The notes under the pieces were generated by a model. The model did not search any database and was not told the DNA's origin. It saw only the letters and a program-made list of their open reading frames with translations. Shown piece by piece: positions 43,158 to 43,687 of a stretch of DNA of 64,000 nucleotides. How positions within the stretch are numbered: the first letter of the stretch is position 1; each line of letters begins with the position of its first letter. Location of the stretch: assembly GCA_963714925.1 (NCBI GenBank), contig CAVQQK010000018.1:60361-124360 (forward strand). Reading direction: 5' to 3'. The DNA comes from an uncultured beta proteobacterium (GTDB lineage Bacteria > Pseudomonadota > Gammaproteobacteria > Burkholderiales > SG8-39). Position numbers and translations under genes: made by a program.

Positions 43158-43233
43158 GGCCAAGTAGCTCAGTTGGTAGAGCAGAGGACTGAAAATCCTT
43201 GTGTCGGTGGTTCGATTCCGCCCTTGGCCACCA
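43158..43233 (+). tRNA. tRNA-Phe (GAA)
   Basis: 76 nt: acceptor GGCCAAG/CTTGGCC, anticodon loop CTGAAAA, T-arm GGTGG-TTCGATT-CCGCC, encoded CCA. TATAAT at 43108-43113 upstream. Confidence 0.92.
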
Positions 43234-43687
43234 CGATTTGCGAGCGTCGCGAGCAAAATCTAGCAAGGATGATTCCGCCCTTGGCCACCACGATTTGCGA
43301 GCGTCGCGAGCAAAATCTAGCAAGGATGATTCCGCCCTTGGCCACCACGATTTGCGAGCGTCGCGAGCAAAATCTAGCAAGGATGATTCCGCCCTTGGCC
43401 ACCACGATTTGCGAGCGTCGCGAGCAAAATCTAGCAAGGATGATTCCGCCCTTGGCCACCACGATTTGCGAGCGTCGCGAGCAAAATCGAGCAAGGATGA
43501 TTCCGCCCTTGGCCACCACGATTTGCGAGCGTCGCGGGCAAAATCGAGCAAGGATGATTCCGCCCTTGGCCACCACGATTTGCGAGCGTCGCGAGCAAAA
43601 TCGAGCAAGGATGATTCCGCCCTTGGCCACCACGATTTGCGAGCGTCGCGAGCAAAATCGAGCAGGCGTAATTGCCCTTGGTCGCGA
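43214..43687. repeat. 57-bp tandem array (7 full units, a truncated 8th and a degenerate 9th tRNA-end copy), each unit being the last 20 nt of tRNA-Phe plus a 37-nt spacer
   Basis: GATTCCGCCCTTGGCCACCA recurs at 43214, 43271, 43328, 43385, 43442, 43499, 43556 and 43613. The spacer is CGATTTGCGAGCGTCGCGAGCAAAATC(T/G)AGCAAGGAT. A degenerate copy ATTGCCCTTGGTCGCGA sits at 43671-43687. Confidence 0.95.

Follow-up and report, generated by a model that had tools for sequence, protein, structure and literature searches.

A tRNA-Phe gene that runs directly into head-to-tail copies of its own 3' end raises the question of what such an array represents: the scar of a lost integrated island, a plain minisatellite, or an element in its own right. 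The case considered here lies in a stretch of 64,000 nucleotides (the window, to which all positions given without a locus label refer) on contig CAVQQK010000018.1 of an uncultured beta proteobacterium of the Burkholderiales (lineage SG8-39). Comparison of the array with the corresponding loci of other bacteria suggests that it is very probably an amplified form of a conserved trailer module of tRNA-Phe, rather than the remains of an island.

The tRNA-Phe(GAA) gene, with an encoded CCA, occupies positions 43158-43233 of the + strand, as identified by both ARAGORN and Rfam (RF00005, 71.6 bits), and its last 20 nt (43214-43233) constitute the first copy of the repeat. Tandem Repeats Finder (TRF) delimits the array to 43214-43664, with a period of 57, 7.9 copies, 99% matches, 0% indels and a score of 867. 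The 20-mer GATTCCGCCCTTGGCCACCA has exactly eight exact matches in the window (0.03 in shuffles), which start at 43214, 43271, 43328, 43385, 43442, 43499, 43556 and 43613. A 27-nt core of the spacer is likewise present in eight copies, against 0 in shuffles, all of them in register with the 20-mer and with a single mismatch, a private A>G at 43537 in unit 6. Another variable base divides the array into two blocks, with T in units 1-4 (43261, 43318, 43375 and 43432) and G in units 5-7 (43489, 43546 and 43603) and in the truncated eighth (43660). Seven complete 57-bp units (43234-43632, + strand), each composed of a first hairpin (H1), a linker, a second hairpin (H2) and ACCA, were delineated by TRF, pattern searches and a listing of the units, and all seven are matched by the covariance model R1, with E-values from 7e-6 to 6e-4. 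They are followed on the same strand by a truncated eighth spacer (43633-43670), in which H1 is intact, G is retained at 43660 and the 5' strand of H2 has diverged to GAGCAGGCGTA, and by a degenerate copy of the tRNA end, ATTGCCCTTGGTCGCGA (43671-43687), recognised from its sequence and from its homology to repeats that flank islets in relatives. The model gives a weak match of 13.6 bits to this truncated end (43634-43687). ARAGORN, Rfam, TRF and the pattern searches thereby reproduce what the original prediction, made from the bare sequence, had described, i.e., a tRNA-Phe running into a 57-bp array with a truncated unit 8 and a degenerate final copy, and the unit listing reproduces its T block (units 1-4), its G block (units 5-8) and the private substitution in unit 6. 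That the three unit variants occur in an ordered arrangement speaks for several genuine copies, and against a collapsed or an inflated artefact; the count of eight is that of the assembly. Two other identities were considered and rejected. An array of clustered regularly interspaced short palindromic repeats (CRISPR) was ruled out, as the spacers are identical save for two variant positions. A protein-coding repeat was also ruled out: 57 is 19 x 3, yet homologous units measure 54-76 bp and are multiples of three in only 28 of 68 cases.

Such units are not confined to the window. One genome per species was scanned for two 20-mers separated by 25-55 nt, and this species scan returned 21 loci, all from betaproteobacterial/Burkholderiales metagenome-assembled genomes (MAGs) save for one contig labelled Streptomyces, which is probably mis-binned. 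The spacer is homologous to that of the window in all 21 loci. A scan of metagenomes, anchored on the tRNA end plus ATTT...AAAAT, gave at least 120 matches, and about 70 among those listed represent the same element; about 50 of the 120 listed were discarded as chance matches in low-GC coding DNA. The homologous units, 54-76 bp in length, start 0-3 nt past the encoded CCA. They are also found behind variants of tRNA-Phe (AATTCCGCCC, GATTCCGGCC and AATTCCGTCC, with AATTCC, CCGGCC or CCGTCC), and in most of the variant loci the unit copy carries the variant of its own tRNA, which indicates, on sequence grounds, that the 3' strand of the unit is under concerted evolution with the live tRNA. Many loci share the gene order groESL - tRNA-Phe - unit - hemA-prfA (tblastn). 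Across these syntenic loci the GroEL proteins are 83-98% identical to that of the window, and the HemA proteins only 60-77%. Because the synteny holds at this level of HemA identity, the unit appears to have been inherited vertically at a syntenic site over deep divergence.

In the window, a pattern search for dispersed copies gave eight matches, all inside the array, and R1, run over the 64 kb with filters off, found the array only (next best match 14.5 bits, E = 0.11); over about 0.93 Mb of loci, all of its confident matches are at tRNA-Phe ends. No dispersed element resembling the repetitive extragenic palindromic (REP) sequences, which the original prediction had named as an outcome that would count against it, was seen in the window or in these loci. 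The module does share tandem imperfect GC-rich palindromes, and a repeat of about 20 bp alternating with a segment of about 40 bp, with REP sequences and bacterial interspersed mosaic elements (BIMEs) and with the Neisseria intergenic mosaic elements (NIMEs) and their dRS3 repeats, but those are dispersed in tens to hundreds, whereas the module was found only at tRNA-Phe. In the PLSDB plasmids (blastn) only tRNA genes matched, and the single match that reaches past the tRNA is a tRNA-Phe/tRNA-Ala array of pM7012. In this 582-kb plasmid of Burkholderia sp. M701 (locus L161, where L-numbers are labels of the compared loci; 444062-444230) tRNA-Phe is directly followed by tRNA-Ala, an arrangement unrelated to the module. 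None of 21 other tRNAs in the compared DNA carries a repeated tail, a set too small and too biased to establish specificity for Phe. Rfam, at the gathering threshold and in an E-value scan of 43100-43750, recognised only the tRNA itself (RF00005) and left the units unmatched, and no title or abstract among the results of a full-text literature search describes such an element. The lack of an Rfam family and of a description in these titles and abstracts is consistent with the earlier impression that the arrangement had not been described.

Folding of 49 non-redundant units predicts a pair of hairpins in almost every one. H1 has the general form (TC)GATTT, a GC-rich stem, a GNA triloop (e.g., GCGAAGC) and AAAATC(GA). 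Its base (GATTT / AAAATC) is AU-rich and invariant and in most cases contains either a C.A mismatch or a bulged A; its GC-rich upper stem covaries freely and often contains G.A mismatches. The H1 base GATTT / (G/C)AAAATC (43235-43239 and 43255-43260 in the window) also corresponds to GAAAAUC, the sequence of the tRNA-Phe anticodon loop (G34-C40), together with the complement of that sequence, and this match may reflect coincidence, descent or alternative pairing. H2, of the general form GGCCAAGG...CCTTGGCC followed by ACCA, is predicted to form a minihelix that resembles the acceptor/T-arm of a tRNA. Its 3' strand is the copied T-stem and acceptor 3' strand of the tRNA, and its 5' strand, GGCCAAGG, is the tRNA's own 5' acceptor sequence, which restores the acceptor stem and leaves ACCA single-stranded. 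This pairing of the 3' end of the spacer with the 20-mer had been missed in the earlier reading. In relatives, H2 has mostly 8-10 predicted pairs (range 6-13), and the unpaired 3' tail that follows it is ACCA in nearly all units, 4 nt being the commonest length. At three loci (L110, L091 and L153) H2 reads GGCCGAG-GTGG-TTCAATT-CCGC(C)-CTTGGCC-ACCA, i.e., an acceptor strand plus a complete T-arm, which amounts to a tRNA-Phe without its D and anticodon arms. The second pair of H2 is compensated in L056 (GACC...GGTC), and in L113 the stem of H2 reaches 12 bp and includes a different 'T-stem'. A second architecture combines a longer H1, TCGATTT...AAAATCGA, with a shorter H2, CAAGGGC-GATTCC-GCCCTTG.

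Covariation of the paired positions was assessed on a structural alignment made by hand, in which N stood for gaps and which MAFFT left unchanged; plain MAFFT misaligned H1. In this alignment 84.6% of the cells are paired, compared to 74.6% in shuffles and 31-45% in slid controls. Of the 28 pairs, 19 are changed on both sides (9.5 +/- 1.5 in shuffles, 6-10 in slid controls), and the covariation score is 0.206 (0.077 and 0.02-0.036, respectively); none of 500 shuffles reached any of the observed covariation values. For H1 alone, 11 of 17 pairs are compensatory among the 49 non-redundant units, and the covariation is visible by eye (GCC..GGC, GCG..CGC, CAC..GTG, GAT..ATC, GTC..GAC). The units of relatives fold at z-scores of -3.3 to -6.0 with respect to shuffles. 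We consider it probable that the module is under structural selection.

The behaviour of the array among close relatives was followed at the tRNA-Phe/yjbQ junction. The exact YjbQ protein of the window is not on record, and the junctions of relatives were fetched via YjbQ homologues. L001 and L002, the closest relatives (YjbQ 96% identical, GroEL 97-98% over the aligned fragment), contain no unit; CCA runs into GTTTTCGG, beyond which are found a redoxin gene and then a degenerate copy, GATTCCGCCCTTGGTCACGA, abutting yjbQ. In L003, L019 and L012, strains of one species represented by NCBI MAGs with related contigs (YjbQ 88-89%), the 57-bp period is present, with a spacer homologous to that of the window, in one, two and three units, respectively; beyond the units come GTTTCCGG, what is left of the redoxin 3' end, and some 3.4 kb occupied by other genes. 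L146 (YjbQ 79%) has three units and then 4.9 kb before yjbQ. Over 67 arrays, 48 have one unit, 15 have two, two have three, one has four and the window has seven complete units, the longest array, all of these being counts that short-read assemblies may misjudge; 19 of the 67 (~28%) have at least two units. The units are near-identical inside an array and divergent from array to array. From these comparisons it follows that the array predates the lineages concerned, is variable in copy number and can vanish cleanly. The earlier suggestion of a plain variable-number tandem repeat (VNTR) was thus right as regards the amplification, since head-to-tail near-identical units are accompanied by copy-number polymorphism among close relatives (0-7 complete units); what it lacked is that the amplified thing is a conserved module. 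Like bacterial minisatellites, the array has head-to-tail identical units, a variable copy number, block-wise variants and a diverged edge unit; unlike in them, the repeated unit is not arbitrary sequence but has a structure, one whose conservation reaches far past the species level.

Between array and yjbQ the window has 0 kb, compared with 0.78 kb (L001), 3.4 kb (L003) and 4.9 kb (L146) in relatives; this interval represents a variable islet region that has been wholly lost in the window. The islet of L001 (1505-2176) contains a redoxin/AhpC-TSA gene only. That of L003 (4508-7688) carries a helix-turn-helix gene, a dCTP deaminase, two 70-aa genes, an M48 peptidase and two decayed tRNA-end copies, and that of L146 lies within 4380-9294. 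Homologues of the degenerate copy at 43671-43687 are GATTCCGCCCTTGGTCACGA+ACCCAGATTCGACCC, which flank the redoxin gene in L001 and L002, and TGGCCACCAAATCC, which adjoins yjbQ in L003; the copy is most readily seen as an old attR-like repeat from the far end of the islets between tRNA-Phe and yjbQ.

Small islands have also integrated within the tRNA-Phe anticodon loop or beside it, at five loci (L027, L093, L050, L037 and L087). In L027 and L093 the island brings a new 3' half of the tRNA, followed by its own terminator. The displaced original 3' half (from CTGAAAATCC; ...GATCC in L087) keeps H1 and H2 downstream, with only the left arm of H1 remaining on the displaced half in L087. According to the Campbell model the displaced side is bacterial DNA, and because the module stays with this half, the unit would appear to be a chromosomal resident and not island cargo. 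The islands themselves were located at 1846-4463 and 4547-7725 in L027 and at 1-1200 in L037, and the cargo of these anticodon-loop islands includes a GNAT acetyltransferase, a 993-aa lipase-like protein and a nucleotidyltransferase. In L022, a T-loop-type attR directly adjoins a module.

These islands and islets bear on the possibility that the array itself descends from an island scar, in which case integration at the T-loop would have duplicated a 20-bp core, the element would have been deleted down to 37 bp, and the remaining attL/attR scar would have been amplified. As in the att repeats of tyrosine-integrase islands and prophages, the 20-bp repeat spans the tRNA from T-loop through CCA, the classic identity block of tyrosine integrases that target the T-loop. 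The locus is clearly a hotspot with genuine decayed att copies and islets, 43671-43687 among them: decayed tRNA-end copies are found by yjbQ and past the M48 gene in L003, an attR-like copy at the redoxin gene of L001, and islands in L027, L093, L050 and L087. The sequence CAAGGGC-GATTCC-GCCCTTG, moreover, shares the 7-6-7 layout of recombinase core sites. Yet a scar would show a lineage-specific junction, whereas CCA + 0-3 nt + GATTT is constant in at least 22 species, in a syntenic setting and with compensated pairs, so that the unit, unlike att repeats, is a covarying two-hairpin module with a constant junction. The unit lies on the bacterial, chromosomal side of integrated islands and is not accompanied by an integrase; the identity to the tRNA extends over ~12 to >24 nt in different lineages, with no single crossover point; and only 37 bp separate the repeats. 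No integrase family was matched among ten large open reading frames (ORFs) scanned between 37.5 and 50.6 kb, which are not every ORF of that span, and a single pattern scan of viral contigs (AAAATC-N-20-mer) gave no attP composed of the hairpin plus the 20-mer, its only matches being a tRNA-Phe and an attR that belongs to a low-GC prophage. We regard the scar as a highly improbable origin of the array. The att scar proposed in the original prediction is thus not supported as regards the repeat unit, and stands for the copy at 43671-43687.

Several observations weigh against a module selected as RNA, and some of them would suit other explanations. The scans imposed two 20-mers or ATTT...AAAAT, so the invariance of these motifs is partly a matter of ascertainment, and the alignment was fitted to the structure by hand, so the covariation figures lean towards structure. 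The two strands show no asymmetry in fold energy (mean minimum free energy (MFE) of -28.8 for the + strand and -28.6 for the - strand, p = 0.85), the counts of G.U versus A.C carry no strand signal either way, and the conserved C.A mismatch of H1 is a G.U pair on the - strand. In the second architecture H2 has only 7 bp and a 7-nt tail, rather than a 12-bp minihelix, and with its 7-6-7 arrangement looks as much like a recombinase core site. H1 is kept and H2 lost in L053, L084, L055, L069 and L119. The module is also dispensable, being cleanly absent in L001 and L002; a clear + strand terminator is present in only 9 of 59 distinct downstream flanks; and whole units of the window have MFE values of -13 and -15.1 kcal/mol, which do not differ from shuffles (z = -0.01 and -0.24). 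Because H1 outlasts H2 in the loci named above, H1 would seem to be the more constrained part of the module.

The equal fold energies of both strands and the lack of a bias of G.U over A.C are among the points in favour of sites that act at the DNA level, with H1 and H2 serving as preferred or decoy attB sites, which would draw integrating elements off the live tRNA gene, or as hairpins for single-strand DNA enzymes. H2 is a near-perfect palindrome around T-loop sequence, the T-loop-type attR of L022 abuts the module, and GNA triloops of the GCGAAGC type are exceptionally stable as DNA hairpins too. We nevertheless think it unlikely that the module is a DNA site of this kind: the free covariation of the H1 upper stem favours a folded single strand over a sequence-specific duplex site, the displaced copies at the five island loci start in the anticodon arm, a part that H2 does not have, so that there is no sign of a capture of elements by H2, and no recombinase or HUH gene was found near the window array among the scanned ORFs. 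A neutral partial duplicate of the tRNA end, kept by gene conversion and expanded in the window into a plain minisatellite without function, would account for the absence of the module in L001 and L002, the decay of H2 in several lineages, the shuffle-like folding of the window units and the highly variable copy number. H1, however, lacks a donor for gene conversion, yet 11 of its 17 pairs are compensated across loci with 60-77% identical HemA, and the units of relatives fold far better than shuffles (z of -3.3 to -6), and such an absence of function is, in our view, rather improbable.

H1 of the window array (43234-43261 in unit 1 and every 57 bp thereafter, + strand) reads CGATTT GC GA GC GTC GC GA GC A AAATC(T/G) and is predicted to fold with an AU-rich lower stem, a bulged A, tandem G.A mismatches and a GNN triloop. 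H2 of the window array (43264-43290 in unit 1 and every 57 bp, + strand) reads CAAGG-AT-GATTCCGC-CCTTG with the tail GCCACCA, and has seven predicted pairs (5+2). Among the 49 units, that of the window ranks third weakest in H1 and second weakest in H2. It reads (T/G)AGCAAGGAT, compared with GGCCAAGGAT in the near-identical unit of L146, for which the MFE is -23.2 (z = -3.3). The spacer hairpin of the original prediction is thus present, but the whole window unit folds no better than shuffles. Because the 5' strand of H2 has decayed, the window array is probably a nearly inert minisatellite, and the growth of the longest array from a highly decayed unit fits a minisatellite that expanded after structural constraint had been relaxed. 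Intact hairpins are nonetheless present in four or five of the multi-unit arrays outside the window.

The position of terminators is informative with regard to the extent of the transcript. Clear + strand terminators sit after the last unit, and not after the tRNA, in L034, L056, L064, L081, L118, L133 and L153, and also in L024. H1 or H2 as the terminator of the tRNA was rejected, as no + strand U-tract stands behind either hairpin. On the - strand, a terminator scan gave 10 sites in the array, compared to 1.5 in shuffles, and H2 read on that strand (43264-43283 in unit 1, and again at each 57-bp step), with CTCGATTTTG or CTAGATTTTG behind it, scores as a weak intrinsic terminator that faces the convergent yjbQ. 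The units could then be minus-strand terminators or insulators, in which H2 plus (C)GATTTT halts convergent yjbQ transcription before it enters the tRNA; the number of scan sites and the convergence of yjbQ (and of the M48 gene in L003) on the array speak for this. The U-tract, however, is only 4 nt long and starts 1-3 nt past the stem, hemA and redoxin genes are co-directional in many loci, where there is nothing to stop, and the covarying stem of H1 is left unexplained, so that we hold this role to be extremely unlikely.

On balance we favour, as a whole, an amplified trailer or processing module of tRNA-Phe. The module would have originated as a tandem duplicate of tRNA-Phe that lost its core, and concerted evolution would hold its 3' strand identical to the live tRNA. 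It would be co-transcribed with tRNA-Phe, and H2 would direct processing in the way of a tRNA: an RNase P-type activity would cut at the 5' end of H2, and its CCA end would be recognised, such that the cut separates the tRNA from the downstream RNA, much as the t-elements of plant mitochondria do. Slippage or unequal exchange between 20-bp repeats about 37 bp apart, bridged by the hairpin, would bring about the amplification, a process expected to yield the 0-7 complete units among relatives, and the seven plus a truncated eighth in the window. RNA processing as the function under selection is put forward only tentatively, the chances being somewhat against it. The CCA-ended tRNA-end elements suggested in the original prediction come closest to this explanation, with the proviso that their pairing has decayed in the window.

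Acceptor-T-arm minihelices are minimal substrates of RNase P and of the CCA-adding enzyme, and the t-elements of plant mitochondria are tRNA-like processing signals. Like these, H2 of the relatives is a hairpin of 8-13 bp that starts with the 5' acceptor strand, sometimes includes a full T-arm, and ends in ACCA; it is located beside a real tRNA and upstream of the hemA-prfA mRNA, in a transcript that is predicted here. Unlike these, H2 has 7 bp in one architecture and about 5+2 bp in the window. To our knowledge, no t-element-like example has been described in a bacterial chromosome. The 3' external transcribed spacer (3'ETS) of Escherichia coli glyW-cysT-leuZ is similar in being a conserved sequence directly 3' of a tRNA within a transcription unit, but the module has no single-stranded seed region, and a tRNA-like hairpin is not among the features of 3'ETS RNAs. 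It is also conceivable, though unlikely, that the module is a small gene whose processing from the tRNA-Phe precursor yields a product with its own role, be it a stable minihelix RNA of tRNA-Phe ending in CCA, a free RNA of the H1 hairpin, or both. If true, it would be a naturally encoded stand-alone minihelix in bacteria, with candidate roles as a decoy or substrate for enzymes or toxins that recognise the acceptor/T-arm together with the CCA end, or as punctuation of the tRNA type by which the 5' end of the hemA-prfA message is set, and tandem arrays would tune its dosage.

The surroundings of the array in the window are of a housekeeping character. Upstream are groES (41006-41299, identified by the Pfam family PF00166) and groEL (41370-43034, + strand), the latter an ORF with a GGM-repeat C-terminus, encoded by a 9-bp ATGGGCGGC repeat (TRF), and with the tblastn synteny described above. 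They are followed by an intrinsic terminator of groESL read from the sequence (43061-43087, + strand), GGGGCGC-TTCG-GCGCCCC and then a T-run, an element that is kept in L001, L003 and L012. The presence of this terminator implies that tRNA-Phe would have its own promoter in 43088-43157, where a consensus promoter scan found none. The next gene after the array is indeed yjbQ, as had been predicted along with the lack of an integrase, which held for the scanned ORFs. It is encoded at 43703-44119 on the - strand, convergent with the tRNA and the array, and was assigned from its translation and its PF01894-bearing homologues. A gene of the histidine phosphatase family (PF00300; 44126-44701, + strand) is divergent from yjbQ, and the same gene order is found in relatives. 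The scanned neighbours comprise UbiD, PBP4, the histidine phosphatase, DUF1538, HemA and PrfA.

Other repeats were detected by TRF in the window. Immediately downstream of hemA-prfA, at 51471-51522, an 11-bp repeat of 4.7 copies (or a 22-bp repeat of 2.1 copies), TTATCCACCCG / TTATTCACCCGTTATCCACGCG, consists of clustered 9-mers that resemble DnaA boxes, and may be a site connected with an origin or regulated by DnaA. At 23193-23307, 23621-23665 and 24858-24907 there are repeats of coding type with an abundance of Gly, Met and His codons, including a 45-bp repeat of 2.6 copies at 94% identity and a 24-bp repeat of two copies, ATGATGGGGCGCGGCATGGGCGGC; these repeats at 23-25 kb suggest Met-rich metal-binding proteins, similar to those of copper resistance.

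Copies of tRNA 3' ends beside tRNA genes are routinely read as integration scars, and the present module constitutes an exception, which calls for caution in island-finding software keyed on tRNA fragments. For this uncultured lineage, the array provides a ready strain-typing marker. If the module does not act as RNA, it would still illustrate neatly how a minisatellite is seeded by a hairpin with short direct repeats on either side. Should it prove to be a small RNA or a signal for RNA processing, it would represent a bacterial counterpart of the organellar t-elements and a natural minihelix, and would then be of interest to both the maturation and the evolution of tRNA.

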